Shown one piece after another: positions 5,410 to 60,788 of a stretch of 64,000 nt of DNA. The position numbers and the translations under genes were made by a program. How positions within the stretch are numbered: the stretch's first letter is position 1; every line of letters starts with the position of its first letter. Origin of the DNA: Eledone cirrhosa (lineage: Eukaryota); NCBI GenBank assembly GCA_964016885.1, contig OZ024746.1:56916001-56980000 (forward strand), in the 5' to 3' direction. The notes under the pieces were generated by a model that saw only the letters and a program-made list of their open reading frames with translations, searched no databases and was not told where the DNA came from.

Positions 5410-5971
5410 GGATAACAAGTTATCGTTTTAGGTAATCCAGTTAAAGGCTGTGCGTACTCTGTATTGCGGATAGTTTTAACGTACGGCGTTTTTTGACTCA
5501 ACAAGATATTTCCATATTTAGGTAGCGAGTTCGCGAAAATTCCGATACAGTTTATTCTTGGAGTAATAGTAGTGTTTTCTCTAACGTCATCACTACTTTA
5601 CACATTTACTTACTCACCACTCTAACTTCAACTACCGCCACCACCACTACTATTATCAGCAATCGTATTCTGTACTTATCTTTGACATCTTTATCATCTT
5701 CATTCCAACATCTTTATTATTATCTTTTATTATCTTTTATTATTGATGTTATTATTTTGATTCTCCGATGTATCTATAAATGCTAATGCCATGTGTTAAA
5801 CCCTCCAGTATTCCGATGAATTGATCAGAGACACACACTGTATTTAATGTCGAGTGACGCAACTTCGAATGATTAGCGGCCTTTAGACTTACCTGATCAA
5901 TGAAACAATTTTTAATACTATAATTAAAACGCTTTTTGTACAGCCGACCATGTTATTTATCCCCCTTTAAC

Positions 5972-6021: not shown

Positions 6022-6329
6022 AGAAAACGAAACATTAGTGATGCATCTGGACTTAGTTTATTTCGTTTTACATATGTTTCGCCGGCATGTAGCTCGAGTC
6101 ATGGTCCTTGCATGGATCTAGCTGATTCTACTTTCTGCAGGTTCTTTCAGACACGGGTGTTACGTCCGGAGCAAAGGACGTAACACCCGTGTCTGAAAGA
6201 ACCTGCAGAAGTAGAATCTCCCAGATCCATACAAGGACCATGACTCGAGCTACATGCCGGCGAAACATATGTAAAACGAAATAAACTAAGTGCAGATGCA
6301 TCACTGATTTTTCGTTTTCTTTATAATAT
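6013..6329. repeat. ~155-bp-arm palindrome containing the 3' half of an HHR (inverted truncated pLTR)
   Basis: The arms mirror around GTTACGTCC-GGAGCAAA-GGACGTAAC. GAAACATATGTAAAAC lies at ~6262-6277. Confidence 0.85.
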
Positions 6330-6631: not shown

Positions 6632-6969
6632 GTAATAATAATAAAATTGAAGACTAAAATCCAAAGAGGGCTCGATAAGGAAAATATATATCAAATATAT
6701 AAGAACTCTAGAGCAAATATTTATTAAAATAACAGATTAAAGTTTAAGCAAAGAATCGCTGCTTTCACCCTTAACGGGATTTTCTGAAACTAACAAAGTC
6801 AATCTGTAAACGCAGAACTGGATATTTCAAAAAACGTTGCAACCGGAGGAAGACAGGAAGACGATACTTTGGTTCGTGGAAACGTCTGTTGGCAAAGAAC
6901 GGGAAAAAACGAATAATACGTCATTAATAGGAGCGATGAAAAACAATTACGCGCAAAGACAGAACCACG

Positions 6970-8483: not shown

Positions 8484-9411
8484 CACGATCTATACGTGGT
8501 TATTTTACGTCTTGATGTGGGAGCTAAGTATATGTTTTGTTTATTCCTTTACTTATTTGCATAGGTAAGTATATATTACCCGTATGTTTTGTGAAGGTAT
8601 GTATACCTTCTCGTACGTATATTTGACTGTTATGGCGTATAATTTTTACATATTCTGGCATTTAGGGTTTGGCTATGTGTATACGGGAGTTTTGCGTCTG
8701 CGTGAGTATGCAGGTTCGTACGTATGGTGGGTGTGTGTAGATGTGTACTTCTTGTTTTAGTTGACTTACGTCTCCGAACATTCGTGTATTTATTTGTAGG
8801 TATGAGTGAGCGCTTGTTATATACGTATTTATTTACTTATATACGTTTACATAATTATTTATTTATTTGTACACAAGCATACACACACACACATATTTAT
8901 ATGTGCGTTATTTTGTATACCTATGGTAAGGTTTTGCGTATGCTTGTGTATGTACGTATCTGTTTGCGTGTATGTATTTATTTGTTTCTATTACTTCTGT
9001 ATTGTATTTATTTACTTTGTTCTTAACCCTGTAGCGGAGATTCATTTGGTCTCCTAGTTAGAATTTTAGTCTACAACTTCTGATATACCATTTACGTGGT
9101 TTTGTCTTTGCGTGCTATTGTTCTCCACGCTCCACATATGACTTATTATCTTAGTTTTTTCGTTCAATGCCAGAGAACGTCTCTATGCACCACCTAAGAG
9201 AACATTAGTCTACGACCTCTTTTATACCATAAACGTGGTTCTGTCTTTGCGCGTAATTGTTTTTCACCGCTCCTATTAATGACGTATTATTCGTTTTTTC
9301 CCGTTATTTGCCAGCGAACGTTTGCCCGAACCAAAGTATCGTCTTCCTGTCTTCCTCCGGTTGCAACGTTTTTTGAAATATCCAGTTCTGCGTTTACAGA
9401 TTGACTTTGTT

Positions 9412-9462
9412 AGTTTCAGAAGATCCCGTTAAGGGTGAAAGCAGCGATTCTTTGCTTAAACT
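9412..9462 (+). ncRNA. Hammerhead ribozyme variant (family A)
   Basis: AGTTT-CAGAAGA-TCCCGTTAAGGGT-GAAA-GCAG..TTGC-TT-AAACT. An inverted, core-mutated copy is at 6741-6791. Confidence 0.65.
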
Positions 9463-9478
9463 TTAATCTGTTATTTTA

Positions 9479-9529
<51 letters not shown>

Positions 9530-12671: not shown

Positions 12672-13164
12672 AAGTTAACACCGAGTGAAATAATGATCTA
12701 AATAAATATGGTGCAACGTTGGTGCCAGATCATATCAGTATTATATAATGGTTTAACTCAGAACAGAAATCAACTTTTAACCCTATGAAAGCAAACGTTA
12801 TGATAATTATGTAATGTTGGCCATTCACTTTACTCCTAGGATTCACAGAGAGACAAACACAACCACACATATAACCCCCCCCCCCCCACCACACACACAC
12901 ACACATGCATGTTTTTCTGTGGGATTTCTTTTAATTTATCACCCGGTTTTGGGGGGATCCGAGATAGGCGTATGAAACCTTTTCAATTTTGTTTATTATG
13001 GATCGGCAATGGTGATATTAACCAATATTTGTACTAACTTTGCATTTTGTCCTAGGTAGATGTGGCTATTTACACTTACAGCGTGTGCATAAGGTCTCGC
13101 TTAGTGAATAGTGGCATATTCTGAGGTTTCGTGTATGTGTTCACTTAATATAACTTACATTTCA

Positions 13165-16100: not shown

Positions 16101-19100
16101 GTGAATAGATAATATTAGAAATGGATAGTTGTGCCTAGAGGTTATATTAGGAATGGAGAGTTGTGACTAGATATAATATTAGAAAGGGAGAGTTGTGACT
16201 AAATAATATTAGAAATGGCGAGTTGTGCCTAGAGGTTATATTAGGAATGGAGCGTTGTGACGAGATATAATATTAGAAAGGGAGAGTTGTGACTAAATAA
16301 TATTAGCAATGGAGTGTTGTGACTAGAGATACTATTAGCAAAGGAGATTTGTGACTAAATAATATTAGAAATGGAGAGTTGTGCCTAGAGGTTATATTAG
16401 GAATGGAGAGTTGTGACTAGATATAAAATTAGAAAGGGAGAGTTGTGACTAGAGATAATATTAACAATGGAGAGTTGTGACTAGAGATAATATTAGAAAT
16501 GGAAAGTTGTGACTAGAGATAATATTAGAAAGGGAGAGTTGTGACTAGAGATAATATTAACAATGGAGAGTTGTGACTAGATAATATAAGAACTTGAGAA
16601 TTGTGACTAGAGATAATATTAGAAAGGGAGAGTTGTGACTAGATAATATTAGAAAGGGAGAGTTGTGACTAGATAATATTAACAATGGAGAATTGTGACT
16701 AGATAATATTAGAAATGGAGAGTTGTGAATAGATAATATTAGAAATGGATAGTTATGACAAGAGATAATATTAGCAATGGAGAGTTATGACTAGATAATA
16801 TTAGCAATGGAGAGTTATGACAAGAGATAATATTAGCAATGGAGAGTTATGACTAGATAATATTAGAAATGGGGAGTTGTGACTAGATAATATTCACAAT
16901 ATATCGTTGTGACTAGAATATAGTAACAATGGAGTATTGTGTGCTAGATAATATTAGAAATGGAGAGTTGTGACAAGTTAAAATTAGAAAGGGAGAGTTG
17001 TGACTAGTGATAATATTAACGATGGATAGTTGTGAATAGATAATATTAGCAATGGAGAGATGTGACTATATAATATTAGAAATGGAGAGTTGTGACTATA
17101 TAATATTAGAAATGGAGAGTTGTGACTAGAGATAATATTAGAAATGGAGAGTTGTGACTATATAATATTAGAAATGGAGAGTTGTGACTAGAGGTACTAT
17201 TAGCAAAGGAGAGTTGTGACTAGATAATATTAGGTATGGAGAGTTGTGACTAGATACTATTAGACATGGAGAATTGTGACTAGATAATATTAGAAAGGGA
17301 AAGTTCTAACTAGAGATAATATTAGAAATGGAGAGTTGTAACTAGATAATATAGACAATGGAGAATTGTGACTAGTGATAATATTAGAAATAGAGCGTTG
17401 TGACTAGATAATATTAGAAATGGGGAGTTGTGACTGTATAATATTAACAATGTAGAGTTGTGACTAGAGATAATATTAGAAAGGGAGAGCTGTGACTAGA
17501 TAATATTAACAAGGGATATTTGTGACTAGAGATAATATTAGCAAAAGAGAGTTGTGACAAGATAATACTAGAAAGGGCGAGTTGTGATTAGAGATAATAT
17601 TAGCAATGGAGAGATGTGACTAGATAATAATAGAAATGGAGAGTTGTGACTAGAAATAATATTAGAAAGGGAGAGCTGTGACTAGAGATAATATTAGCAA
17701 AGGAGAGTTGTGACTAAATAATATTAGAAATGGAGAGTTGTGACTAGATATAATATTAGAAAGGGAGAGTTGTGATTAGAGATAATATTAGAAACGGAGA
17801 GTTGTGACTAGAGATAATATTAGCAAACGAGAGTTGTGACTAGATAATATTAGATAGGGAGAGTTGTGACTAGATAATATTAGAAAGGTAGTGTTGTGAC
17901 TAGAAATAATATTAACAATGGTGAGTTGTGTCTAGATAATATTAACAATAGAGAGTTGTGACTAAATAATATTAACAATGGAGAGTTGTGACTAGATAAT
18001 ATTAGAAATGGAGAGTTGTGACTAGAGATAATATTAGAAATGGAGAGTTGTGACAAGAGATTATATTAGAAATGGAGAGTTGTGACTAGATAATATTGAC
18101 AATGGAGAATTGTGATTAGAGACAATATTAGAAATGGAGAGTTTTGACTAGAGATAATATTAGAAATGGAGAGTCGTGACAAGAGATAATATTAGAAATG
18201 GAGAGTTGTGACAAGAGATTATATTAGAAATGGAGAGTTGTGACTAGATAATATTAGAAATGCAGAGTTGTCACTAGAGATAATATTAGCAATGGAGATT
18301 TCTGACTACATAATATTAGAAATGGAGAGTTGTGACTGGACATAATACTAGAAATGGAGAGTTGTGACTAGAGATAATATTAGAAACGGAGAGTTGTGAC
18401 TAGATAATATTAGATGGGGAGAGTTGTGACTAGATAATATTAGAAAGGTAGAGTTGTGACTAGAAATAATATTAATAATGGAAAGTTGTGTAGTGGCTAG
18501 AGAAAATATTAGAAATGGAGAGTTGTGACTAGATAATATTGACAATGGAGAGATGTGACTAGATAATATTAGAAAGGGAGAGTTGTGACTGGAAAATATT
18601 AACAATGGATAATTGTGACTAGATAATATTGGAAAGTGAGAGTTGTGACAAGAGATAACATTAGAAAGGGAGAGTTGTGACTAGAGATAACATTAGAAAT
18701 GGAGAGTTGTGACTAGATAATATTAGCAATGGAGAGTTGTGACTAGATAATATTAGAAACGGAGAGTTGTGACTAGATAATATTAGAAATGGAGAATTGT
18801 GACTAGATAATATTAGAAATGGAGAATGGTAACTAGATAATATTAGATAGGGAGAGTTGTGACTAGATACTATTAGAAAGGTAGAGTTGTGACTAGAAAT
18901 AATATTAACAATGGAGAGTTGTGACTAGATAATATTAGCAAGGGAGAGTTGTGACTAGAGATAATATTAGAAAGGGAGAGTTGTGGCAAGAGATTATATT
19001 AGAAATGGAGAGTTGTGACTAGATAATATTGACAATGGAGAGTTGTGACTAGAGATAATATTATAAATGCAGAGTTGTGATTAGATAATATTAGAAATGG

Positions 19101-21036
19101 TGAGTTGTGACTAGAGATAATATTAGAAATTGAGAATTGTGAAAATAGATTATATTAGAAATGGAGAGTTGTGACTAGATAATATTGACAATGGAGAGTT
19201 GTGACTAGAGATAATATTAGAAATTGAGAATTGTGACAATAGATTATATTAGAAATGGAGAGTTGTGACTAGATAATATTAACAATGGAGAGTTGTCACT
19301 AGAGATAATATTAACAATGGAGAGTTGTGTCTAGATAATATTAGAAATGGAGAATTGTGACTAGATAATATTAGAAATGGAGAGTTGTGACTAGATAATA
19401 TTAGAAAGGGTGAGTTGTGACAAGAGATACTGTTAGCAAAGGAGAGTTGTGACTAGATAATATTAGAAATGGACAATTGTGACTAGAGATAATAATAACA
19501 ATGGAGAGTTGTGATGAGCTTATATTAACAATTGAGAGTTGTGTTGTGGCTAGAGAAAATATTAGAAATGGAGTGTTGTGACTAGATAATATTAGAAATG
19601 GAGAGTCGTGACTAGGTAATGTTAGAAATGGAGAGTTGTGACTAGATAATATTAACAACGGAGAGTTGTGACTAGATAATATTAGAAATGGAGAGTTGTG
19701 ACTAGATAATATTATCAATGGAGAGTTGTGACTAGATAATATTAGAAACGGAGAGTTGTGGCTAGATAATATTAACAATGGAGAGTTGTGACTAGATAAT
19801 ATTAGAAAGGGAGAGTTGTGACTAGATAATATTAGCAATGGAGAGTTTTGACTAGATAATATTAGAAACGGAGAGTTGTGACTAGATAATATAAGAAATG
19901 GAGAGTTGTGACAATATAATATTAACAATGGGGAGTTGTGACTTGATAATATTAGAAATGGAGAGTTGTGACTAGATAATATTAACAATGGTGAGTTGTG
20001 ACTAAATAATATTAGAAATGGAGAGTCGTGACTAGAGTTAATATTAGAAATGGAGTGTTGTGACGAGAGATAATATTAGCAAATGAGAGTTGCGACTAGA
20101 TAATATTAGAAATGGAGAGTTGTGACTAGAGATAATATTAGAAACGGAGAGTTGTAACTAGATAATATTAGCAGTTGGAGAGTTGTGACTAGATAATATT
20201 AAAATGGAGAGTTGTGACTAGAGAAAATATTAGAAATGGAGAGTCGTGACTAGAGATAATATTAGAAATGGAGAGTTGTGACTAGATAATATTAACAATA
20301 GAGAGTTGTGATTAGAGAAAATATTAGATATGGAGAATTGTGACTAGATCGTATTAGAAATAGAGAGTTGTGACTAGACGATATTAACAATGGAGAGTTA
20401 TGACTAGATAATATTAGAAAGGGAGAGTTGTAACTAGAGATAATATTAGAAATGGAGAGTTGTGTCTAGATAATATTAGAAATGGAGAGTTGCGATTAGA
20501 TAATATTAACAATGGAGAGTTGTGACTCGAGAAAATCTTAGAAGTGGAGAGTAGTGACTAGAGATAATATTACAAATGGAGAGTTGTGACTAGATAATAT
20601 TAGAAATGGAGATTTGTGACTAGATAATATTAACAATGGTGAGTTGTGACTAGAGTTAATATTAGAAATGGAGTGTTGTGACTCGAGATAATGTTAGCAA
20701 TTGAGAGTTGTGACTAGATAATATTGGAAAGGGAGAGTTGTGACTAGAGATAATATTAGAAATGGAGAGATGTGACTATATAATATTAGAAATGGAGAGA
20801 TGTGACTAAATAATATTAGAAAAGGAGAGTTGTGACTATAGATAATATTAACAATGGAGAGTTGTGACTAGAGATTATATTAACAATGGAGAGTTGTGAC
20901 TAAATAATATTAAAAATGGAGAGTTGTGACTAGAGATACTATTAACAATGGAGAGTTGTAACTAGAAATTATATTAACAATGGAGAGTTGTGACTAGAGA
21001 TAATATTAACAATGGACAGTTGTAACTAGAGAAAAT
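13165..21036. repeat. Satellite array of 30/32-bp monomers (consensus GAGAGTTGTGACTAGA[GA]TAATATTAGAAATG), ~7.9 kb
   Basis: Head-to-tail tandem monomers (about 255 by length) with no spacers. Confidence 0.98.
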
Positions 21037-21232
21037 AGACATCAATGTTTTACATACTATGTCGGTGGTCATAAGTATGACAATGATAGGTGCAATGGTA
21101 TGTTAGGCATATGTTTCATAGGACTGCTACGTATACAATGGGATTGAACTGCAGATGTAGTGGAAGAGAGTAGTGGTTCATCACTAAATGTACTGCTACA
21201 TGTGGTAATTGTATTAGAAGTATAATATAATT

Positions 21233-34918: not shown

Positions 34919-35281
34919 AGTTAAAACAATGAAATAAAACATCAAGTCATTACAGATATACTTCACTGCTTTACGATCGTTTCTAGATGGTGATTATACA
35001 TTGTATCTATACTCAGTTATTGATCTATAATTTTACAAACTATCAGATAGAGAGAATATTTACTTACATGCATATCACCAGCTGTTTTCAAAAGCAATTG
35101 CTTTTGAAAAGAGCTGGTGATATGCATGTAAGTAAATATTCTCTCTGTCTGATAGTTTGTAAACTTACATAGATCAATAACTGAGTATAGATACCATGTA
35201 TTATCACCATCTAGAAACGATCGTAAAGCAGTGAAGTTTATTTCTAAAGACTTGATGTTTTATTTCATTGTTTTAACTTAT
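34916..35281. repeat. ~180-bp-arm palindrome made of two head-to-head HHR-containing pLTRs
   Basis: The centre is TTTTCAAAAGCAATTGCTTTTGAAAA. The sequence is related to the pLTR at 56540-56722. Confidence 0.9.
35099..35230 (+). ncRNA. Hammerhead ribozyme, U3-A8 core variant, extended stem II
   Basis: TGCTT-TTGAAAA-G-AGCTGGTGATA...TATCACCATCT-A-GAAA-CGATCG-TA-AAGCA. The mirror copy is at 34967-35096 (-). Confidence 0.75.
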
Positions 35282-37740: not shown

Positions 37741-39011
37741 ATCTGTCTACAAGTGTAAGGTCGAGACACGCACGTCCCGTAGCGCCTACATAGCGTTAAC
37801 CGCCAATAGATTCAAGCAACGTCTTTACAATCACACCCATTCTTTTCTTAACCCTTTAAGAAGGAATATAACGTCACCTTCAGCTTATATCTGGAGTCTA
37901 AAAGACAACCACACCCAATATAGGTTACACTGGGGGATCCTAGCTAAAAGGTAGATCGTGTAACGGAAATAAAAGACCATGTGATCTTTGCGCAGCTGAA
38001 GCCATGGAGTTACTCTACGCCGATGACCACATCTTTAAAAAGAAATCTGAGGCAAATTCGACTTGTAAACACAAATTCCAGAAAACTTTCCTGTATTACA
38101 GCCCCACATGTATAGTACAAAACACGGATAATTTACGTCTTGATGCGGTAGCTAAGTATATTTTATGTTTATACCATTACGTATTTGTATACGTAAGTTT
38201 ATCTTAACCATATGTTTTGTGAAGATACGTATATTTTCCCGTTCGTATATATGCTTGTATTTGTTATAGGTGTATATATTATATTATATATGCTGGTTAT
38301 GTGTATATGGGTATTTTGTGTGTGTGCGTGCATGCGTGCATGCGTGTGAGCACGTATGTAAGGTGTGTATATGTGTACATTGTGTTTGGTGGACGTATAT
38401 TCGGTGAACATATGTGATTTTGCCTGTAGGTATGTGTGTGCATGCGCTATATATGTATTTATGTGTGTTTATTTATATTCGTTTATACATTTTTTTATGT
38501 GTATTTGGTGTATACGTTCGTATGTGTCGAGCGGGCTTTTGTATGTCTGCGCGTGTTTATGCATACGTGCTTCTTTATTCATGCATGGCGGGTGTTTGCG
38601 AGTGTTCACGAGTTGTATCTATATAGGTGCGTGTAAGTATATATTTAATTATTATTTCTTTTAATAACATCTGTCATTTTAGTTCTACTTATTTATTTAC
38701 ATTATTCTTAACCCCGAAGCCGAGAATCATTCGGTTTCTTAAATAGAATATTTGTCTACGACTTCATTTATACAATAACCGTGGTTTATCTTTGCTTGTA
38801 ATTGTTCTCCTCGGTTAACATAACGAAGTATTACCTTCATTTTTTCCGTTTATTGCCAGGGAACGTCTTCACGAACCAAAGTATCGTCTTCCTGTCTTAC
38901 TACGGTTGCAACGTTTTTCGAAATATTTACTCCACAGATCAACTTTTTTAGTTTCAGAAGATCCCGTTAAGGGTGAAAGCAACGATTATTTGCTTAAACT
39001 TTAATCTGTTA

Positions 39012-39018
<7 letters not shown>
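37741..39018 (+). mobile_element. PLE family A 3' fragment (GIY-YIG + 3' UTR + pLTR, HHR at 38950-39000)
   Basis: VYKCKV..AYIALTANRFKQRLYNHTHSF..CDLC..CKH, homologous to 8103-9478. Confidence 0.9.
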
Positions 39019-39048
<30 letters not shown>

Positions 39049-39092
39049 TATTTTCCGTTGTGTTGTAATATAAATATTATGATAGAAGCCGT

Positions 39093-41273
39093 ATGAACTC
39101 AACATTAGAAAGTGGTGTAAACAACAAATTCGGTTTTAGGACTTGTAAAAACCCACCCACCAACCCACTATTAGATACATTTGAGCAGGACCTTATGAAC
39201 TTAATCCTTAAAATTAAATTCAAAGGACGCAACACCAACAGCAAATTACAGAAAGATATAAAAAAACTACTGGACGACCTTAAAAACACCAAAGCAATTG
39301 TAGTAAAAGCGGACAAAACATCAAACCTGTACACTATGGATTGCACTACATACAACAACTTCATTCGAAAAGAATTACATAAAAAATATAGAAAAACGAG
39401 TGAAGTAACCCTTAAGCACATCAATGATGAGGCATGCGAAATAGTGAAAAATCTCGGAATCGAAGATAGGACAGGACCACTCTTACCGGCGGTACCCACC
39501 TTCAATCTTAAGGACCACAAGGTAAACTTTGATAATGACCCTAAAATTAGATTAATCTGCCCCTCTAAATCAGATATAGGTAAAATAAGCAAATATATCT
39601 TAGATAGAATCATCCCCCAAATTAAGGCTAAGGTTAACATTAAACTCTGGGGGAAGACCCAAGAAGCAATAAGATGGTTTAATAGCATTAGCAATAAGAA
39701 TAAATCTAAGTTTATCCAGTTTGATATCGATGAATATTACTCATCGATATCACTTGAAACTTTGAATAGAGCCATTAAGTTTGCTAAGGATAACTCTGAC
39801 CTTACAAACGATGAAATTAAGATTATATTAGAAGCTAGGAAAACTATAGTCAACTTTGAGAACAGTTATTGGGTACGTAAAGATAGACCCTCTAACTTTG
39901 ACATAACAATGGGATCTAACGATTCGGCGGAAATAACCGATATTGTGGGGTTATTTATCGCCTTTAGACTCCAGGAAAAATTCAGCAATCTCCACAGCGG
40001 AATATACCGCGACGATGTTCTCCTCCTAGCTAAAAGCCTTAATAACCAAAAACTAGAAAAACTACGCAAAGATATAAGAAAACTACTACTCGAAATAGGA
40101 CTAACTATAACATATGAATACAACCTTAAAGTAGTTAACTTCCTGGATGTCACACTCAATTTAAACTCTGGTTTGATTAAACCGTTTCATAAATTGAATG
40201 AAAATCTCAAATACGTAAATGTTGGGTCTAACCACCCCATCTCTATAATTAAATCTATCCCTAAAAATATTTCCCTTAGAATCTCGGGTCTATCTTCCAA
40301 CATACAAGTATTTAAGGAACACGCCGAGTACTACGATAACGCCCTTAGTAAAGCAGGCTACCTCAACAAAATAGAGTACATAGATGGGAACAATCAAAAC
40401 ACCCAAAATAAATCCCACATAGGTAGATATAATAACACAACACCAAACCACACTTACTACCATAGTATGCACACCAGTAAACCAACAAACAAAACTAATA
40501 GAAAGCGATGCAAAGAGTACTTATGGTATAACCCCGAATACAATAGCTCCATTAGTACAAATTTACCAGTACTCTTCTTTAAAATAATTAAAAGACATTT
40601 TCCCACATCACACAAATACCACAAAATCCTAAACCCTACCACTATAAGACTGTCATACTCTACAGCGTTAAACCTTGAACAACACATAAAAAAGATCAAT
40701 ACTAGAAGGTTAAACGAAAACACTAAGAACTTAAGTACAAAGAACACAAAAAAAACAGTAGACAATACACTACAGAACATAAATAAACCACACCTAAGTT
40801 CGTCCGCAATACTACTCCAGAGAAAACCCAACGTACACAACTGTAACTGCACCTATCCTGACAACTGCCCCCTCGGCAATAACTGCCTGGAAAAAAATAT
40901 TATTTATAAGTGTACCATTAAATCCGGAGGCAACGAGTGGTATTACGTGGGATCAACGGCAACATCGTTTAAATCTCGATTGTATAGGCATTCTTACTCA
41001 ATAAAGCACCAGAGCCAAAGAAATGTAACAACTTTAGCAGAAAAAGCTTGGACGCTAAGGGATAGCGACCAAAAGTTTACCCTAAAATGGGAAAAATTAG
41101 CTAAAACCCAAAGCTTCTCCAGGAGCCAAAATTTCTGCAAATTGTGTAATCTTGAGATTTATTACATAATCACACACAAGAAGAAACTGCTGAATAACAG
41201 AATTGAACGAACATTATTCTGCCGTCACAGAACTAAAACCCTTTTTTCCCACTACAAGCCGAATATTACATAA
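39093..41273 (+). CDS. PLE reverse transcriptase-GIY-YIG endonuclease polyprotein (726 aa; probably N-terminally truncated)
   Basis: KADKTSNLY, LKDHK, FIQFDIDEYYSSI, MGSNDSAE, GIYRDD, NFLDVTL, SNHP, WYNPEY, CNC..CPL..CL, IIY..YVGST..R..H, CKLC.LE, LNN and CRH. Confidence 0.95.
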   Translation: MNSTLESGVNNKFGFRTCKNPPTNPLLDTFEQDLMNLILKIKFKGRNTNSKLQKDIKKLLDDLKNTKAIVVKADKTSNLYTMDCTTYNNFIRKELHKKYRKTSEVTLKHINDEACEIVKNLGIEDRTGPLLPAVPTFNLKDHKVNFDNDPKIRLICPSKSDIGKISKYILDRIIPQIKAKVNIKLWGKTQEAIRWFNSISNKNKSKFIQFDIDEYYSSISLETLNRAIKFAKDNSDLTNDEIKIILEARKTIVNFENSYWVRKDRPSNFDITMGSNDSAEITDIVGLFIAFRLQEKFSNLHSGIYRDDVLLLAKSLNNQKLEKLRKDIRKLLLEIGLTITYEYNLKVVNFLDVTLNLNSGLIKPFHKLNENLKYVNVGSNHPISIIKSIPKNISLRISGLSSNIQVFKEHAEYYDNALSKAGYLNKIEYIDGNNQNTQNKSHIGRYNNTTPNHTYYHSMHTSKPTNKTNRKRCKEYLWYNPEYNSSISTNLPVLFFKIIKRHFPTSHKYHKILNPTTIRLSYSTALNLEQHIKKINTRRLNENTKNLSTKNTKKTVDNTLQNINKPHLSSSAILLQRKPNVHNCNCTYPDNCPLGNNCLEKNIIYKCTIKSGGNEWYYVGSTATSFKSRLYRHSYSIKHQSQRNVTTLAEKAWTLRDSDQKFTLKWEKLAKTQSFSRSQNFCKLCNLEIYYIITHKKKLLNNRIERTLFCRHRTKTLFSHYKPNIT

Positions 41274-42227: not shown

Positions 42228-42344
42228 TTATTCTGATGAAATGACAGTAAATAATAACATTGAAATATTGAATGTCTGCATAACTAAAAGTTTGTAGATA
42301 GCTGTTTTAGGTTATGTAACTGTTATAGAAACACGTGTCAATAA
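42228..42344 (+). ncRNA. Type I hammerhead ribozyme, canonical core, extended stem II
   Basis: TTATT-CTGATGA-A-ATGACAGT-(70 nt)-ACTGTTAT-A-GAAA-CACGTG-TC-AATAA. Confidence 0.85.
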
Positions 42345-42378
42345 ATTCCTTTCAACTAAACTGTATCCATTCAAATCT

Positions 42379-42436: not shown

Positions 42437-44406
42437 TCAGGTTATCAATAATGTAGTGATAATATATCGTTACGTTAGAGATGAACAGCGTACGTGCAGG
42501 TTTGCTCAACGAGTATAAATTATATTCCGGAGAAATGTAGAAAGGATGAATATAAAATGAAAGTGCTTTTGTTAAAAAAGGAATTTATTAGGTATTGACA
42601 TATGTTTCTGTAACAGACCGAATACCTATGTATCGCTGCTTGCGTAATCATATAATGTTAGCAAGTATTCGATAGCAAATGTATAATCAGTTGTCACTTC
42701 TTCAGAGATTTTGGATAAACTGGATAAAATCAGAAAAATTGAAGTATTTATATTAGTAAAAGAGGAAGGAAGAGAGGGGATAGAATATGACAGATGGTAA
42801 AATAATTTACTGCTAAACAAGTATATAATGGGTTTTTAATGAGAATACCATGAGTAAATCTAAATAAGAATTTTGGGGGTGCCGATTTTAATCTCTACTT
42901 GACCAACTGGACAGTGGACAGGGCTGGTCATTTGGTGCAGTAGTATTAATCATAAAGTGTCAAATGGGGAAGGGGGAGATTTCGATTGCTACTAAATAAC
43001 ATCAATGCTAGTGGTCAGCTGGTATTTGCTCTAGGGAATTGAATAAAAAAATCAGAAATCTCATTTTATCTATAGCAGTTTGTATTAAAAGGTAAATAAT
43101 AGAAGAGTTGATAGAATTAAGACTAATAAAGAATGTTCATATCCATTTTGACAATCAAACGGGGATAGAGACAGGCGTTCAATCCTGGTAGTATTTATAA
43201 TATGAAAATGTAGATTTTAAGCGATGGTTACAGTATAACGATCGCTCTATTCTGTTATTTAATAAAATGTTTTTGGATTTCATAATACAAAATAATTCTA
43301 CATTACATAATCTACAAAATTCCTGTCCATTGGAATATGGGGGGGCATCGCTATTATATCCCATTTTAGGTGAAATTGTTGGTTATTTTCACGCAGCTGC
43401 CAAGCCTTGTCTGCGAGTGTTGTTACATAACGCTGGTTTTCATGTTTTATCGAATAACGATGTCTATAAAGGCGTGATTTAAAGGAGGTGGCTGTAGATC
43501 CCACATAGTACCACTTCTGTCTATCCGATTCGATAGTACATTTGTATACGATGTTGCGTTCAAGACACTGGTTGTTCAACGGACACATTCCTGGTTGGAC
43601 ACAGTTGCAATTACAATTTTGCGTTGTTGTATTGCCATGGATGGGTTGATGAGGTTGCTTATGTAGAACAGGATGTTGTTTGTTGTTTTGTGATGTTATA
43701 GCTAATGTTTTACGTGTATTGTTATGTGTTGGAAGGCGTTTATACAACCGTTTTGCGTTAAGCATTTTTATATGTTGTTCAATATTAGGGGCGGTTGAAT
43801 ATGAAAGTCGGATGGTGTTAGGGTTTAAGATTTTATTATATTTATGTGATGTTGGAAAGTGTTTTCTAACTAATCGAAAGAATTTTGAGGGTAGATTGGT
43901 TTTAATAGATTTGTTATAGACCGGGTTGTACCAGATATACTCCTTACATCGCCTTCTGTTTGGTGGTGTGCGACTATTATTGTGTCTATTGCGGTAGTGT
44001 ATGTATGGTGGTGATTCTGTGCTATTTCTACTCCTATGTGATTTATTTTGGGTGTTTTGGTGATCATTGACTATATACTCTATATTATCTAGGTGACCGG
44101 CTTTCCTAAGTGCATCATCATAATACTCGGCATGTTCTTTGAAGGTTTGTTGGTTGGACGATAGGCGGGAGATTCTAAGAGAAACATTTCCAGGGATGGA
44201 TTTAATTATAGAGAGTGGATGGTTAGAACTCGTATTTACATATTTAAGGTTCTCATTTAGTTTATGGAACGGTTTAATCGAATACTTGCTAACATTATAT
44301 GATTACGCAAGCAGCGATACATAGGTATTCGGTCTGTTACAGAAACATATGTCAATACCTAATAAATTCCTTTTTTAACAAAAGCACTTTCATTTTATAT
44401 TCATCC

Positions 44407-44411
<5 letters not shown>
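42431..44411 (-). mobile_element. PLE, 5'-truncated (thumb-linker-EN), with inverted partial pLTR
   Basis: SNHP, WYNPVY, CNC..CPL..CL..IVY..YVGST and CRLC on the minus strand. 44277-44411 is the reverse complement of 42539-42673. Related to the 39093 element. Confidence 0.92.
42593..42710 (-). ncRNA. Hammerhead ribozyme, extended stem II (weak helix I)
   Basis: CTGAAGA-A-GTGACA-(76 nt)-TGTTAC-A-GAAA-CATATG-TC-AATA. Confidence 0.65.
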
Positions 44412-45168
<757 letters not shown>

Positions 45169-45846
45169 GGATTAACAAATAATAGTTAAATGCAGTCCAC
45201 TTAGGTGAAGTTCAGTTATGGTATTCCAGGTAGTGGATGATATTAACGCTTGGCTTGGTTTGACTCAACAAGGCGTTTTCATAGTGATGCTGCGGGTATG
45301 CTGTAAACACTTGTAGTATAATAAATCAGGAAAGAAGGATTACATGGTTTGCTATACAAAAAAGTTTTTAATCACATAGCTTACATTTGTTTCACTGAAC
45401 TGATCTGTCTAGAGATCGCTATCCGCCTAATTTTGCGTCACTCGATCGCCAATACAGAATTATAACCAGTCAGATCTTCGGAACATGCGAGAATGAAGAA
45501 AATACACAGGCAAGAAAAGAAAAGAAAATATGGAGTAGTTATGTCATTCAATTAGAACAATAACAACAACAATTATTACAACAATGCTATCAATAAACTA
45601 TTTAAGGAGACCCGGACATTACTTAGGTGGGGGGTATATAATGTATCTAATGTTACGGCGTGAAAATCAGCTGTCATAAGGCAAAAAGTATCGTAGTGTG
45701 TATCAATTTTAAATCATAAAGATGAGCTAGTTTTTACAGTCCTTCTCTTCATCTTCAACAGTATACATGAGTGGGACCACTGTCAAAGCTCAATAGTTGT
45801 AGAGTTAATACAGAGGTTAACGAATTAATATACGCATATATCTACG

Positions 45847-45878
<32 letters not shown>

Positions 45879-46570
45879 AATATATATACACATATATGTG
45901 TACATAGACACATACATACAAATCAACATACACTCGTACAAAAATATACATACATGCAAAGAGAAAAGCGTGCTAATTGTAGTTATGGCAAAAAGAAGGT
46001 AAAGTAACATTGTAGTAGTGAAATGAGAAAAACTAGGATCTAGGATCAAATGATTGCAGCAGCTGAGAAGGAGTAAGATTGTTGGTAGATGAGGTATTTA
46101 CAGACAATTGTGTGGTATAGACTTGTGAAGGAAATAGTATATTTAATGAATATATTTCTGTGGGTAGTAGGTATCCTAATTTAAAGCTATGTTATGTTGG
46201 TTCGATTCACGGAGGTTTGAATCTTATGAATTTAGTGGCTATTCTATGTCTGCAGAAGATAGATATTTCTAACTTATTATTAAGTAGCCTTTTAACATTT
46301 CTAAGGATATACAATAGCTCAAGGTCACACAGCCCGCAATAGGATATCCCTGTACTATAGGTACCAACAATCTTACTCCTTCTCAGCTGCTGCAATCATT
46401 TGATCCTAGATCCTAGTTTTTCTCATTTCACTACTGCAATGTTACTTTACCTTCTTTTTTCCATAACTACAATTAGCACGCTTTTCTCTTTGCATGTTTG
46501 TATATTTTTGTACGAGTGTATATTGATGTGTATGTATGTGTCTATGTACACATATATGTGTATATATATT

Positions 46571-46626
<56 letters not shown>

Positions 46627-47152
46627 CGTAGATATATGCGTATATTAATTCGTTAACCTCTGTATTAACTCTACAACTATTGAGCTTTGACAGTGGTCCC
46701 ACTCATGTATACTGTTGAAGATGAAGAGAAGGACTGTAAAAACTAGCTTATCTTTATAATTTAAAATTGATACACACTACGATACTTTTTGCCTTATGAC
46801 AGCTGATTTTCACGCCGTAACATTAGATACATTATATACCCCCCACCTAAGTAATGTCAGGGTCTCCTTAAATAGTTTATTGATAGCATTGTTGTAATAA
46901 TTGTTGTTGTTATTGTTCTAATTGAATGCCATAACTACTCCATGTTTTCTTTTCTTTTCTTGCCTGTGTATTTTCTTCATTATCGCATGCTCCGAAGATC
47001 TGACTGGTTATAATTCTGTATTGGCGATCGAGTGACGCAAAATTAGGCGGATAGCGATCTCTAGACAGACCAGTTCAGTGAAACAAATGTAAGCTATGTG
47101 ATTAAAAACTTTTTTGTATAGCAAACCATGTAAACCTTCTTTCCTGATTTAT
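45169..47152 (-). mobile_element. PLE family B: EN C-terminus plus ~770-bp inverted pLTR arms
   Basis: YCGLCDLELLYI..LLNNKLE...CRH at 46207-46360 (-). Arms 45321-46087 and 46362-47152 are near-perfect reverse complements. Confidence 0.92.
46989..47094 (+). ncRNA. Hammerhead ribozyme, extended stem II (family B)
   Basis: GCT-CCGAAGA-T-CTGACTGGT...ACCAGTTCAG-T-GAAA-CAAATG-TA-AGC. The mirror copy is at ~45379-45484 (-). Confidence 0.8.
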
Positions 47153-48081: not shown

Positions 48082-48167
48082 TATCTGATGACCTTTCGAT
48101 TACAGAGTCAGCTTGGATCTATAATCGGTCTTGCCTCGAGCTGATCGATAGTGAAACATATGTAATA
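48082..48167 (+). ncRNA. Hammerhead ribozyme in a solo pLTR with inverted tail (47953-48076)
   Basis: TAT-CTGATGA-C-CTTTCGAT...ATCGATAG-T-GAAA-CATATG-TA-ATA. 48030-48073 is an imperfect reverse complement of 48168-48212. Confidence 0.75.
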
Positions 48168-49738: not shown

Positions 49739-52420
49739 ATGTGTGTATGTGTGTGCGTATGTGTGTGTGTGTGTGTGTGTGTGTGTCTCTATATATATAT
49801 ATACACATAAACCTATATACATATAAATCTCTAATTTGATTTACACAATTTTCTCTTGCTACATAGTCTTATTTCACCACTTGTTATTACACACGTACTC
49901 ACACAAACAGATAAAAACACACACACATACACACACACACGCGCACACATATATATATATATATTCATTAGTTAAGCAAATCAAGACCACAAATTTCACA
50001 AGGAAGACATTATTAAAAGATTGTCAACATATTTAATTTGGTGTAAGGAATGTAGAGAATAATAATAATAATGTCCGTTTACAATTGTTTGAGGTTTCTT
50101 ACCCACCCGTATGTACCAACAACCCCAAGGTTCTCTCTCAAGGATCACAAGCCAAACTTTATAGGGAACCCATTATACTCATAAGCCCAACCACATCTGA
50201 CCTGGGCTGCATCAGTAAGAACATCCTTGATAGGATAATCCCTGGGCTACGGGATGATACCACCTACAAGTTGTGGTCCAACACGGGCCAAGTCATCCGA
50301 TGGTTCTCCGATCTAAGGTCCAAGCAATCTATGAGGTTCATCTAATTTGACATAGACAGCTATTACGCTTGAATAACCCCGGAACTGCTCAACAAAGCAT
50401 TAACCTAGCCACCACCAACTCGGACATAACCAATAATGAGATTAACATAATACTTATGGCTAGGCAGACTATCATTGAATTCAACGGAGCACTCTGGACT
50501 AGAAAAGATAGAACAGACAACTTTGACATTACGATGGGCTCAAGTGACTCCGCGCAAATCGCCAATTTAGTTGGGATTTACCTATTACGTAACATCAAAG
50601 CCGAAATCCATCCCATGCAAGGCGGATAATACAGGGACGACGCCCTATTTGCGGTCCACAATTGCACTAATCGGGGAATCGATTTGCTAAAGAAACAATT
50701 ACATAGATTCTTCAAAAATAACGCTCTCTCTATCACCATCGAGCCGAACCATAAAGTAGTAAACTTCCTAGACGTCACCCTGAATCTCAACAATAACCTT
50801 TATAAGCCTTACCATAAACCAGGTGAAATACTCACATATATTAGCCCACACTCTAACCACCCACCGGCAGTCATCAGAACAGTAATCAAATCTATCTCCT
50901 ATAGGATTTCAATGCTATCAGCAAATGAGGAGATATTTACAAGCCAGGTACAGTATTATAATAAGGCTATCTCTGAATCTGGTTATAAACAATCAATTTA
51001 TTACATACCTAAATACCATAAAACAGCAATTCACCATAATAAACTTAACATTAGAACTAGAAATATCTTAGCATATAGCCAGATTCGCCGGAATTTTAGC
51101 AGTAACACTGCTCCCCACTCCAAGTAGCAAACTAAAAATCAACCCTAGAATAGGAATGAGAAATGAGATGACAAATAACAAATCCACAGGTAATAATAAC
51201 CCTAGGAAGGCCCCTACCAAGTCCACTAGAACCCCTAGAAGAAATAGACCTAGAAATATCACCTGGCTCAACCCTCCATTCTCATCTAATCTAGCCACTA
51301 ATATCCCCAAACGCTTCTTCTCTATCCCATCCAAACACTTCCCCCCTAACAATAGATATTACAAACTCTTTAATAAAAATAACATTAAAATATCATTATC
51401 CACAATAACTAACCTAGCTAGCCACATCGCGTTCAGTAACCATCATAAGCTAAGACAGTATAACTCCCACACCGCAGTACTACCACCCCTATCAAATACA
51501 CCACGCCACTACACCAATAATTACTCTAGTAGCACACCTGCCCCATCGAATCCTTCTAGCACGGACCTACCCCTTAGGTTAAACAACCCTACTCTCAATA
51601 ACCGCAGAAACAAATGCAACTGCCGTTACCCCAGCGCATGCCCATTAAATGGACACTGCCTGACACCCAACATAGTCTATAGGTGCACGGTTGAGACTGC
51701 TTCGAATATCAGCTCTTATATCGGGTCTACCTCTAACCCTTTTAAGGTACGCTATAACACACTCTTTTTCCTTCCGAGACCCTAGCAGCAGATGTTCGAC
51801 ATCTCTAGCTAGGCTCATTAAAAACCTTAAATTAAACAACGTTCAACACTCGCAAAAATGGGATATCGTGGCTAAGTCCCAACCGTTCAATGGACGAAGA
51901 AAATCTTGTGATCTCTGTATTACGGAAGCATATTACATAACTCTATAAAGACCTCTACCGATTAACGATAGAACGGAGGTAACAATTAGCTGTCAACATC
52001 AAAGGGCTAATTCCTTCCCCAATAGAATCTTTGACCCAACTTAGTCATGTAGCCCCATTTTTACTTGTAGCTAATAAGTTAAATTGCTATGAACAACTCG
52101 ATAATTATAAGTTACCTACCCTACATTGTCTCTCAAATAAACACATTTTAAAATCAGCACTTAACTATAAACACCCACAATTTCTAATCTCTCGAGAAGT
52201 TACTTCCTCTGAAACCACCCTCTAATTAGTAAGGTAAACATGCCCTTTGGCAGCCATCTTGTTACCCATAGGCAGATCTCACACAATGCAGCCTCGACAG
52301 ATGACTACTGCTTGATTATGGCTGACAACTGATGCAACCAAGACACCATAGTAAAAACCAATATATGGACCATTATATTATGTAACATAATCCCATTATT
52401 TTAATTTATATTCCTTTGAA

Positions 52421-52540
52421 GTTCCGATGAGCCACTCTGTTTTTTAAATATGTTAATTATTTTCAACTGAACCAGATCAATTATGATATATAGTCATCTG
52501 ATCCAGAAATATTATATGGAGTAGCGAAACAATTGTAAAC
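52421..52540 (+). ncRNA. Hammerhead ribozyme, extended stem II
   Basis: GTT-CCGATGA-GCCACTC-(81 nt)-GAGTAGC-GAAA-CAATTG-TA-AAC. Confidence 0.75.
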
Positions 52541-54427: not shown

Positions 54428-55765
54428 ATAAAGAATTAATATCTAGTAACATATATATACATACAGATGCATATCGATGCTAGCAAATATATAGGTTTTG
54501 TCTTAGTAACTTTGTGGTTCAATGCATGGGGTTGCAGTACAATAATATGAGAGACGTAAAATAAGAAAATTATAAAATTAACTTACTTACTAAAATTTCA
54601 CTCCCAACTAATTAGTTTCTGAAATGGAATAATTATATTTTCCGAAGAAAATATAGAGAAGCATTTCGTCGTCAGGGAAGTCTATTCTCAGCTAAGTATC
54701 CAGGCAAAGCGTGGACTCTGGAAACTTATACAAAAATAATTCAGTGGATAGAAAATAGCAAAGCGTGGACTGAATTCCTAGCCTACTGAAATCACTGCCT
54801 ACTGCGTCGGTGGCAAATTCAAAAAGAATCAATCACGTGACATCGAGCTCAATCAGTGGAAAGTGGGTTGTTAAGAAGACAGCGGCCTGCCTGCTACCAT
54901 AGCAGCAGTCTTGGCCAATATTGCTCGACAAATAATTTGGAGATAATTATAAAGAATTAATATCTAGTAACATATATATACATACAGATGCATATCAATG
55001 CTAGCAAATATATAGGTTTTGTCTTAGTAACTTTGTGGTTCAATGCATGGGGTTCCAGAGTCCATGCTTTGCCTGGATACTTAGCTGAGAATAGACTTCC
55101 CTGACGACGAAATGCTTCTCTATATTTTCTTCGGAAAGTATATTTATTCCATTTCAGAATCTAATTAGTTGGGAGTGAAATTTTAGTAAGTAAGTTAATT
55201 TTATAATTTTCTTATTTTACGTCTCTCATATTATTGTTCTGCAACCCCATGCATTGAACCACAAAGTTACTAAGACAAAACCTATATATTTGCTAGCATT
55301 GATATGCATCTGTATGTATATATATGTTACTAGATATTAATTCTTTATAATTATCTCCAAATTATTTGTCGAGCAATATTGGCCAAGACTGCTGCTATGG
55401 TAGCAGGCAGGCAGCTGTCTTCTTAACTTCTTAACAAACCACTTTCCACTGATTGACCTCGATGTCACATGATTGATTCTTTTTGAATTTGCCACCGACG
55501 CAGTAGGCAGTGATTTTCTCAATGGCTAGGAATTCAGTCCACGCTTTGCTATTTTCTATCCACTGAATTATTTTTGTATAGGTTTCCAGAGTCCACGCTT
55601 TGCCTGGATACTGAGCTGAGAATAGACGTCCATGACGAAGAAATGCTTCTCTATATTTTCTTCGGAAAATATATTTATTCCATTTCAGGAACTAATTAGT
55701 TGAGAGTGAAATTTTAGTAAGTAAGTTAATTTTATAATTTTCTTATTTCACCTCTCTCATATATT
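54428..55765. mobile_element. Non-coding HHR-containing repeat (family D, ~520-530-bp unit): inverted and tandem units; retrozyme-like
   Basis: AAAGAATTAATATCTAGTAAC occurs at 54430 and 54951. The inversion point is ~55055. CAGAGTCCA.GCTTTGCCTGGATAC occurs at ~55056 and ~55587. (TA)n flanks. Confidence 0.8.
54601..54680 (-). ncRNA. Hammerhead ribozyme (family D) with cUUCGg-capped stem II extension
   Basis: CTTCC-CTGACGA-C-GAAATG..TATATTTTC-TTCG-GAAAATATA..CATTTC-A-GAAA-CTAATTAG-TT-GGGAG. Mutated copies lie at 55096-55175 and ~55626-55705 (+). Confidence 0.8.
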
Positions 55766-56539: not shown

Positions 56540-58950
56540 ATTAATAAAAACAATGAATAAAAACAAAGAATAAGTTCCTTATATTTAAAATTCCTCATTT
56601 TACGATCGTTTCTAGGATATATATGTGTGTTGGTATGTATATCTTACAGATCTATGTAAAAATATTACAAACTATCAGAGGAAATATACATACCTTCACA
56701 TATATATGCTGTCTTCAGAAATAATGAGATATGTTTATTGAAAAAAAACAACAAAGATTTAATATAATAGGTCTGATTGGGGACAGGTTTTGAATTGACC
56801 AATAGAAAAGTAGTAAGTGATCAAGTTGATAGAATACTAGTAGTAGAAATTTAATATAGAGGTAGAGGAATGCAGACTTATGTTTTGAATGAAAAGAATA
56901 CTTTGGGGATGAAAAGAGGTCAAGCCGGTGAAAGGTACGCGTAAATTTGATGTTATTAAAGAATAATGTTAAAAACGAAGGAGAGTAACATTTTAGGGTA
57001 AAGGTATAAGTGAGAAATACCAGTCTTATTTAAAACATAAGGAATTTAGATCTATAACAAGAAATTCAATTAATTGATATGTATACTTATAGGGATAAAT
57101 TTATATTAATTCATTTGGATATGATAAATAAGATCGAGATGTTATTAAATGTTAAAAATGAAGGAAAATAAAATTTTAGGATACGTGTATTAGTCAGAAA
57201 TACGAATCTTATATAGACTACAAGGAATCTAGATTCATAACAGGAAATTAAATTAATTTATATGTATTCTTTTAGGAAAACAGAGCTGTAAGCGGGAAAT
57301 AAAATTATGAAGTTCTCTGTAGTAAAGTACAAATAATAGGTTAATTAAATTAAAAATACTAATTATAATATGTAAAATATAAGTGTAATGTGTATATTAA
57401 TTAGGTTTATACTATTTGAAAGTTCTTCTAATTCTATGATTGCAAGATATAATTAATTCTTGTCGCTCATCTTAGATTTCATTATTTCAAAAAGTTCATG
57501 TGAGCATAATTTACACTCATATCTGTTATTTTGATTAGGGATGGCCCTTTTAAGCACACTCCAGGTCAGGTTATAATGGATATTCTTTTTTCTATAATTA
57601 TTAATTGTTTCAGCCAAGGATGTTGTATTAGCTAATGCGGCATTTTAAAAACTATGTTTGTGGGTATTAAATCTTACTTTAAATTGGTTAGACGTAGCTC
57701 CTATATATGAATAAGTTGAGTACTTAGTGCTAATTTTACATTTATATACTATGTTATTAATAAGACAATTTCCTTTTAATGGGCAATTTCTTTTGTTTCT
57801 ACAGTTACACCCATTTGTGAATATTATATCAGGGGAGTTAGTCACATTTGGTGTGGAATTTACTCGACTTGTTATATGCGAAGGAGATGGTGGTTTGTTG
57901 CGGTTTATTTTAGTATTATGGTAGGATTGATGTGTTCGTGGTGTATTCGAGGTTATTTTACATTTATATGCGTTGTACGCACTTATATTTTGTTGTATAT
58001 TTTTGGTAGTGGAGTAGGAAAATTTGACAGTTGATCTATTTAGGATAGTAAAACAATTTTTAGGGATATTATCTTTAATTTGTAGATTAAATGGAGCATT
58101 ATACTAAGTAACACGTCTATTACGGTTTCGATGTTGTTTTTTATATATATACGATGTATCAGGATGTTTACAAAGAGAGTTAGTATTAGTGAATTTATTA
58201 TATATAGGTTTAGTTAGATTAACTGATTTAGGTGTTTCAGTCTGATAATTAGGAATTTTGTTATTAATGTTATTAACGTATATTGGAGTATTAGGATGAA
58301 TTGTTTCTTGAAATATATTATATTTTATGTGAGGAGAGGTAGAGATATTTAATTTTAGGTTGGTATTTTTGGGTGTAGTGTGAGTGTCATTTAGGTGATT
58401 GTTTTTCATTTGGTGTTTGTTGGTAATATTGGGTTGTATGTTTGAAGTATTATTAGTGCAAGGTATATATACTAATTTGTTTTTGTGGCCGCTTCTTGCT
58501 AATGCTTCGTTATAAAAGGGAGCAATGTTATCGAATACATACTGGCTAGATGAACGGTTAAAAATTCTGAGTGAGATATTATATACTAGGTTTTTAATGA
58601 TAGATCTAGGGTGATGGATTGTGAGTGTATGTAATATAAGTTTTGGTTAGGTTTATGGTAAGGTTGGTAGATACCCGTAGATAAGTCTAAAGTTATATCT
58701 ATGAAATAAACTATTTTATTGGTGTTTTCCAATGTAATAGTGAGATTATAATTGTCTTTGAGGAAAGTTCTAATAAGTTTTTTTATTTTTTTCAATTTCT
58801 GATAGGCTAAGATTAGTGGAAAGAAGAAGACAGTCATCACGCTATAACGCTATAAACCACCTTTAAGGTGGGGGAAAAGAAGAATTTATGATAAATAGAA
58901 GAAAGAGGCCCACAAGATCGGTAATTTGGGCAGAATCACTAGATCCCATA
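56540..58950 (-). mobile_element. PLE, 5'-truncated, degenerate RT-EN with long linker and HHR pLTR
   Basis: MGSSDSAQITDLVG, YFIDITLDL..YQPYHKP and CNCRNKRNCPLKGNCLINNIVY..YIGATS..R..H on the minus strand. Confidence 0.9.
56597..56722 (-). ncRNA. Hammerhead ribozyme, extended stem II
   Basis: ATTT-CTGAAGA-C-AGCATATATATGTG...CACATATATATCCT-A-GAAA-CGATCG-TA-AAAT. Confidence 0.8.

Positions 58951-60345: not shown

Positions 60346-60788
<443 letters not shown>

Follow-up and report, generated by a model that had tools for sequence, protein, structure and literature searches.

Long stem II domains with a recurring internal loop motif in hammerhead ribozymes of Hydra-clade Penelope-like elements of Eledone cirrhosa

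The role of the hammerhead ribozymes of Penelope-like elements (PLEs) is open: they are poor cutters alone, and one of them needed its protein. The locus at positions 42228..42344 of a 64,000-nt stretch of the Eledone cirrhosa genome (GCA_964016885.1, OZ024746.1, 56,916,001-56,980,000, forward strand; hereafter the window) bears on this question. A reading made from the letters alone (the sequence-only reading) had listed nine hammerhead sites in the window, with recognisable cores, mostly palindromic helix III and paired stem II domains of about 50-105 nt, and had suggested that an extra RNA domain was embedded in the ribozyme, possibly as an RT-binding, promoter or tertiary-stabilising module. 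Are these sites hammerheads, how common are they, and what might such long stem II domains do? The ribozyme at 42228 belongs to family A, one of a set of related families called group I, and has the following parts.

39069..41273, + strand: 5'-truncated Hydra-clade PLE ORF owning the ribozyme, ~960 nt upstream of it
42228..42344, + strand: type I hammerhead of family A (group I), 88-nt stem II, fold z -4.35
42228-42232 and 42340-42344, + strand: stem I
42233, + strand: core CUGAUGA, followed by the stem II domain (42240-42327) and GAAA (42328)
Scissile bond after 42339, + strand: preceded by helix III CACGUG, then UC
42259-42261 with 42308-42310, + strand: 3x3 loop motif 1, AUU with UAG
42271-42273 with UAG near 42299, + strand: 3x3 loop motif 2, AAU with UAG
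42340..42345, + strand: AAUAAA overlapping the 3' strand of stem I

The stem II domain has a 1x1 mismatch and is then closed by 8 pairs. Relative to most family A members this copy misses 3 nt beside motif 2, which is a subfamily trait, and its (TA)n end lies 42 nt past the scissile site. The remaining sites, together with inverted twins and associated ORF pieces, are listed below.

5808..5918, + strand: hammerhead of group I family c6, 82-nt stem II, decayed helix III
34967..35096, - strand: inverted twin of the 35099 ribozyme, 101-nt stem II
35099..35230, + strand: hammerhead of a c1-related family, U3·A8 core, 103-nt stem II
42593..42710, - strand: hammerhead of family B (group I, two motifs), 90-nt stem II, weak stem I
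43194..44320, - strand: truncated ORF of the family B element
44277-44415, + strand: inverted partial pLTR after the family B ORF
45379..45484, - strand: twin of the 46989 ribozyme in inverted orientation, with an endonuclease fragment ~730 nt upstream
46213-46368, - strand: this endonuclease fragment, upstream of the twin
46989..47094, + strand: hammerhead of group I family c2, 81-nt stem II
48082..48167, + strand: hammerhead of group II, one motif, GAGU/GAGC, 61-nt stem II
50172-52017, + strand: ORF fragments of the c7 element of the 52421 ribozyme itself
52421..52540, + strand: hammerhead of family c7, other architecture with a conserved CUGAAC bulge, 95-nt stem II
54601..54680, - strand: hammerhead of family c13, 49-nt stem II
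56597..56722, - strand: hammerhead of family c1, one motif, intron-like GUAUGU...UGAU...UAG, 99-nt stem II
57645-58949, - strand: ORF fragments of the c1 element of the 56597 ribozyme itself

Both halves of the core, a closed stem II and an NUH are present at all nine sites, as first read, and the stem II descriptor matched the window 11 times (the nine sites and two inverted twins), compared with a mean of 0.03 and a maximum of 1 in 60 local dinucleotide-block shuffles. The sites are confirmed as type I hammerhead motifs whose stem II domains measure 49-103 nt, close to the range given at first, and self-cleavage is predicted at the NUH. Their cores read CUGA or CCGA, with UUGAAAA at 35099 and U4C at three sites. 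The U3·A8 covariant is family-wide in the 35099 family (99/100 among the matches listed), and because this family of 938 genomic matches retains the compensatory U3·A8, the core is apparently under selection. The same covariant, also seen in L287-L296, was earlier reported from Schistosoma. The dimer type of helix III is upheld, but the helix is imperfect at 5808 (CAATTT) and 46989 (CAAATG); stem I at 42593 has just one contiguous pair. As to the pairing claimed for stem II, six of the nine domains are predicted to fold much more stably than their shuffles (z -3.4 to -6.2), whereas those at 5808, 48082 and 52421 are not (z -1.0, -0.6 and +0.1). At 54601 stem II consists of a stem, an internal loop and a hairpin, the motif shared by other families being absent, and the GAAA of its inverted twin at 55101 is mutated.

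In groups I and II, pairing amounts to 77-88% in stem I, 93-94% in helix III and 80-85% in stem II, with two-sided changes in each. The predicted pair probability of helix III in the monomer is 0.00-0.24 in 9/10 families and 0.56 in c13 (cluster 22 was left out of this and of the post-cleavage pairing analysis), and an intermolecular helix III is predicted by cofolding in 6/10 families. The short palindromic helix III, unstable in the predicted monomer, is that of minimal, dimeric PLE hammerheads, but stem II, with its 49-103 nt in the window, falls outside their 3-7 bp stem and 3-10 nt loop. Among 150 of 177 matches to Rfam models listed for the window at E<=1 there was no hammerhead; this does not discriminate, because the window's short-stem motifs were unlisted too. 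Such short-stem hammerheads, with a 14-nt stem II and CUAG-type helix III, lie at 1449 (+), 59299 (-), 59670 (-) and 60091 (+), and their family occurs in tandem and inverted copies.

The window holds further pieces of this kind. At 6080 (-) and 6262 (+) there is an inverted pair of group II-like 3' halves, without the 5' core, which disappeared where the inversion is centred. The stretches 2227-2692, 6647-6968, 9005-9522, 38690-39024 and 60496-60713 are end pieces of another family, which adjoins an ORF at 6969-8468; these pieces have a possible degenerate hammerhead with a CAGAAGA core and without a palindromic helix III. An 8-kb minisatellite array of 30-32 bp units spans ~13100-21040.

The PLE origin proposed at first is borne out, as all ribozymes with a linkable ORF sit in pLTRs of Hydra-clade PLEs. 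The ORF at 39069-41273 encodes an RT with YRDD and DKT, a CxCX5C linker and a GIY-YIG endonuclease with CxxC and CxH, and its distance from the ribozyme is as in other family A copies; RWK is present in natural tandem copies of Hydra-type elements (L006, L021). In the portions consulted of Craig et al. 2021 (PMC8557442), the marks of the Hydra clade are RWK, DKT, CxCX5C, CxxC, CxH and (TA)n insertion. We assign the elements to this clade by these diagnostic motifs, the tree being built of the elements and their unnamed relatives; (TA)n insertion and pLTRs with tandem and inverted truncated copies were likewise found. In the tree of 35 rows, 18 of the 19 from the Eledone cirrhosa genome form one clade (SH-aLRT 100), which contains group I (SH-aLRT 100), group II, c1, c7 and one short-stem family, the branching order of these five being not settled in this quick, midpoint-rooted tree. 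The homologues of the element proteins are 31-39% identical. The group II tandem copy L285 runs into a Hydra-type ORF, while ORF-ribozyme links longer than 1,300 nt (L130, L147, L156) were set aside as possible nested insertions, and a parent ORF was not found for c4, c13, c14, c16, c21 and c29. Searches of Pfam named no family for the Hydra-type ORFs (two sub-threshold matches were ignored), and no relative of them was found in the viral contigs searched. Copies of family A in tandem are spaced by 3,564 nt, and exact 22-mer matches to families A and B, taken together, number 5,277. Neptune-like PLEs (YVDD type) also occur in the genome (L146, L148, L108, L116, L125), and the 3' end of the one in L148 includes a short motif resembling a hammerhead; a connection between group II and the Neptune-like ORFs of L146 and L148 was rejected, because these are separate insertions.

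The long motifs are abundant throughout the 3.0-Gb genome. The pattern CYGANGA-N-GAAACRNNYGUH, with 46-135 nt between the core halves, was matched 49,317 times, versus 1,406 times for the reversed pattern used as control. By spacing, there were 13,835 matches versus 2,409 at 16-45 nt, 13,998 versus 518 at 46-75 nt, 27,417 versus 347 at 76-105 nt, and 7,902 versus 541 at 106-135 nt; these are motif matches and not insertions, with inverted pairs counted twice, many copies decayed, and other helix III lengths, spacers below 16 nt and U3·A8 cores, such as those of the family described above, omitted. Among the first 80 unselected long matches, 69 have a stem II closed by at least 5/7 pairs, scored as the best of nine offsets, and no inner core. 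The published PLE hammerhead descriptor allows a loop 2 of 3-10 nt in the portion of its source consulted (PMC4209133), so the expectation that length-limited searches would overlook these ribozymes was correct; standard descriptors miss ~48,000 motif matches in this one genome, the majority of all those that have this helix III type.

Clustering of 148 long domains from the window and 180 loci gave 31 clusters, whose sizes are not abundances, 40 of the loci having been chosen for diversity. Clusters 12 and 26, which are short ribozymes with an extra upstream half-core, and clusters 17, 25 and 30, apparently spurious or deleted, were not counted as families. At least five stem II architectures are found among the families; c4, c7/18, c13, c14, c16, c21 and c29 have long domains with other folds and without a clear copy of the motif described below. 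Cluster 4 (L059, L129, L145) adds another architecture, its stem II terminating in a predicted junction of several hairpins. Families with a short stem II are abundant in this genome and occur within the same protein clade. One short-stem family (L079, L124, L132, L144) has a second CUGAAGA half-core ~45 nt upstream of the real core.

Copies within a family are near-identical, so that conservation within families tells little and the signal comes from comparison between families. On structure-blind MAFFT alignments of group I (24 sequences) and group II (36 sequences), 81.7% of the cells are paired in group I, versus 66.8% in shuffled and 30-41% in slid controls, and 81.2% in group II, versus 69.2% and 28-39%, where the pair structures were defined from the same sequences and the shuffle control ignores relatedness. 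Two-sided changes are seen in 20/24 pairs of group I (9/11 in the inner helices) and in 22/29 pairs of group II. RNAalifold returned 0 consensus pairs on the group II alignment and just six stem II pairs on that of group I. As judged from these alignments, the predicted helices of the stem II domain covary across divergent families. The idea of an extra RNA domain thus stands in so far as the domains are conserved and covary between families, but not as a single domain, given the at least five architectures. In the paired stem II columns of group I, G·U (41) exceeds A·C (18), which points to the given strand as RNA.

These results bear on the suggested promoter role, by which the inserts would be DNA-level promoter or enhancer modules of the pLTR and their folding incidental. 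In tandem copies the domain does lie ~200-300 nt upstream of the ORF start, and c2 and c6 share a UGACGCAA stretch. The UGACGCAA stretch may resemble a CRE-type site. However, UGACGCAA is absent from the other families, and the compensatory changes and the G·U excess indicate selection on single-stranded structure; a promoter role finds no support here, and we consider it very improbable.

A 3x3 internal loop recurs in 17 families, in which 5'-A-N-U-3' faces 5'-(U/C/G)-A-G-3' beside two Watson-Crick pairs, giving the mismatches A·G, N·A and U·U/G. In 27 instances from these families, the flanking pairs are kept in 27/27 and 25/27, A·G in 25/27, the 3'-strand A in 27/27 and the 5'-strand U in 25/27; two of these counts are partly circular, because the instances were anchored by hand on A and AG, and the table slightly understates the motif, with the anchors of c15 motif 2 and of c28 one base off. 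MAFFT alone keeps the YAG letters at >=90%. Ten group I families, including that of 42228, bear two motifs, and an eleventh shows one clearly; group II and c1 have one motif each. Where there are two motifs, they are separated by about one helical turn, with 11-14 nt along the 5' strand and 9-12 nt along the 3' strand. Across the ten families the loop letters are fixed at a mean identity of 43% over the domain, a conservation that is partly shared descent because group I forms a single clade. Resemblances to kink-turn, loop E, UAA/GAN, SECIS and SRP loops were set aside, since the strand order does not seem to match.

It could be argued that the long domains are a by-product of UTR growth, in which selection just closes stem II and interrupts long helices, with dsRNA sensing as a possible reason for the latter, and that the motif is inherited and has no specific ligand. 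The 3' UTRs are indeed ~400-1,000 nt long in Eledone cirrhosa versus 53-292 nt in metagenomic relatives, several architectures are unrelated, and short families do equally well. Yet the A·G and U·U mismatches persist at that mean identity of 43% while neighbouring pairs swap, and AGU and AUU interchange facing UAG within one family, which makes this account improbable in our judgement.

Introns are known in PLE pLTRs, and the inserts might therefore be retained spliceosomal introns, whose splicing would shorten stem II and switch the ribozyme, with the UAG of the motif as 3' splice site. The c1 group has GUAUGU/GUAAGU at position 17-19, UGAU and a pyrimidine-rich UAG over a span of 41-64 nt, signals that a regex found in 26/32 distinct domains (5/6 misses being due to mis-anchoring of the regex); removal of a GUAAAU...UUUUAG stretch from family A would leave a 9-bp stem with a 4-nt loop, and a D. 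virilis intron ends at helix I (PMC4209133, in the portion consulted). On the other hand, there is no GURWGU in the 5' half of c2, c3, c5, c6, c9, c10, c24 and group II, the GU that precedes motif 1 is exchanged for AC or GC in a compensated way, group II has GAG instead of YAG, and the genome has 0 matches for spliced family A or c1, although PLE copies normally keep introns. As a general cause introns are quite improbable; for c1 alone a retained intron is plausible, even if we lean somewhat against it. The c1-group stem II domains at 56613-56711 (-) and 35111-35213 (+) bear complete short-intron signals with the 5' site paired in a helix, which could be structure-based intron retention, and their motif bases could be splice signals.

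Motif and core lie 12-45 nt apart, a variable distance that fits a module for binding that is independent of the core and, as regards the tertiary role first suggested, disfavours a fixed contact with stem I. More broadly, the extension and its non-canonical loops might act as RNA only, contacting stem I, neighbouring RNA or the partner ribozyme at the tertiary level, or serving as a folding scaffold, so that dimer cleavage is sped or blocked without a protein. Natural hammerheads depend on contacts between stem I and stem II (PMC3088659, in the portion consulted), helix III of the predicted monomer is weak, stem II is predicted to be pre-folded in several families, and post-cut bases of family B can pair into the stem II domain; but the motif-to-core distance is not fixed, and the pairing of post-cleavage bases is no better with the domain of their own family than with the domains of other families (3/25 in the top tenth, median rank 0.54). 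We regard this reading as unlikely, though well worth keeping in mind. A general pseudoknot of post-cleavage bases with the domain is unsupported by the same ranks. In family B (42589-42630, -), 8 post-cut bases are exactly complementary to a stretch inside stem II; with its weak true stem I, this could be a family-specific inhibitory fold or pseudoknot.

The ends of the copies tell which RNA was reverse-transcribed. Taken as the first (TA)5 after the scissile site, they are bimodal, lying 40-75 or ~130-230 nt past this site and never at it, and therefore the template was uncut. The distances are 40-51 or 155 nt in family A (19/21 copies), 51-60 or 164-166 nt in family B (10/11 copies), 49-64 or mostly 129-160 nt in group II, 54-75 or mostly 191-211 nt in c1, and 40-52 or mostly 172-213 nt in a family with a 20-nt stem II; among the copies examined, none was closer than 40 nt. 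Contigs aligned to L006 join (TA)n at these two positions as well. In the first 30 nt past the cut, AWUAAA occurs in 21/21 copies of A, 11/11 of B, 12/12 of c2, 25/30 of c0 and 23/30 of the 20-nt family, against 0-1 in an upstream control stretch of these families; it is absent there in c1, c4, c7 and c13. We infer that AWUAAA is used as a poly(A) signal. In families A and B the ATG follows the cut by ~210 nt, and the post-cut tail of the Eledone cirrhosa elements is ~85-170 nt.

Taken together, we favour a reading in which the conserved loop of the stem II domain would be a protein-docking module that tunes cleavage, and hold it at slightly below an even chance. Two ribozymes would pair through their palindromic helix III, while the long stem II would fold by itself and show one motif, or two on the same helical face, to a docking protein, either the element's own RT-endonuclease or a host RNA-binding protein. 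Binding might then shift the balance between whole transcripts, which could be polyadenylated at the adjacent AWUAAA and serve as RT template, and cut ones, whose upstream piece would lose the poly(A) signal. Docking is favoured because the motif is sequence-specific, non-canonical, repeated after one turn and floating relative to the core, and because the Poseidon PAc of Anolis (Frangieh et al. 2024, PMC11167929), the PLE hammerhead assayed with its protein, is protein-assisted; it is weakened because several long families are without a clear motif and short sisters thrive in the same genome. For the latter reason the module would be a modulator, not a requirement. Binding of the RT by the stem II domain, as first suggested, is possible. 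A more far-reaching version, on balance doubtful, is that of a composite hammerhead class, undescribed before, in which stem II would be a protein-binding aptamer and the ribozyme a naturally occurring allosteric switch that directs the RNA to cutting, polyadenylation or reverse transcription; the tandem A·G/N·A/U·U sites, doubled in the ribozyme dimer, would match a dimeric telomerase-like RT. If true, it implies that long-arm hammerheads, possibly with the Naiad 'half-core' cases, are a large overlooked pool in animal genomes. The families offer a covariation-backed module, many evolutionary replicates and short-stem sister controls in one genome, so that the question of protein assistance is now directly testable with them.

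How do these elements compare with known systems? Among 76 metagenomic loci with related ORFs, 32 match the descriptor, the well-formed ones with a stem II of 10-29 nt, the other 44 being uninformative, many on short contigs. Nine long (>=40 nt) descriptor matches at 8/76 of these loci were spurious by eye, lying inside ORFs, being without a proper helix III or extending short ribozymes. Because stem II is short in the metagenomic relatives, the long stem II looks specific to this host lineage in the sample. No description of such long stem II domains was found in searches of openly accessible papers, and long-arm PLE hammerheads are an abundant structural variant, apparently undescribed.

In the published sources, here as far as portions of them were consulted, PAc resembles the present elements in having two 3' ends downstream of the ribozyme and copies made from uncut RNA, as it has two RT start sites and uncut RNA as insertion substrate (PMC11167929). 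It is the sole PLE whose hammerhead was assayed with its protein, and cleavage occurred only in its presence. Unlike the elements described here, it has a compact stem II, an ORF start inside stem II and a 30-40 nt tail. PAc templates cut back to +20 still inserted in vitro, the start of stem II being dispensable, and a protein-binding region was proposed within the first 172 nt of the ORF; these results argue against stem II as the RT recognition site. The closest published case of a PLE with a long loop 2 is that of the spike-moss PLE-X1 hammerheads (PMC8557442, File S2), with a 35-nt loop 2 on a 9-bp stem in one and 29 nt in the other, but these are two single consensus entries marked as deviating, from another clade and kingdom, in a table without covariation or motif. 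The Naiad 'half-core' cases of the same paper, with a spacing of 35-50 nt, may be related, and a 'long' helix II in PMC13725137 means 6-8 bp. The Hydra-clade PLEs of PMC8557442 share with those of Eledone cirrhosa the RWK, DKT, CxCX5C and CxxC/CxH endonuclease, the (TA)n targets and a helix III of the C...G palindrome type; however, all 26/26 rows of their hammerheads in File S2 have loops of 3-10 nt and stems of 3-7 bp, and the Eledone cirrhosa elements are longer, with long UTRs and tails. Finally, the minimal PLE hammerheads of PMC4209133 likewise sit in pLTRs and share a short stem I, a palindromic helix III, additional unpaired bases at either end of stem II, the U3·A8 core variant and truncated and inverted copies that are widespread. 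A stem of 3-8 bp and a loop of 3-10 nt make up their stem II, whereas in the Eledone cirrhosa ribozymes it is a domain of 46-135 nt that includes internal loops and hairpins and in which a motif recurs.
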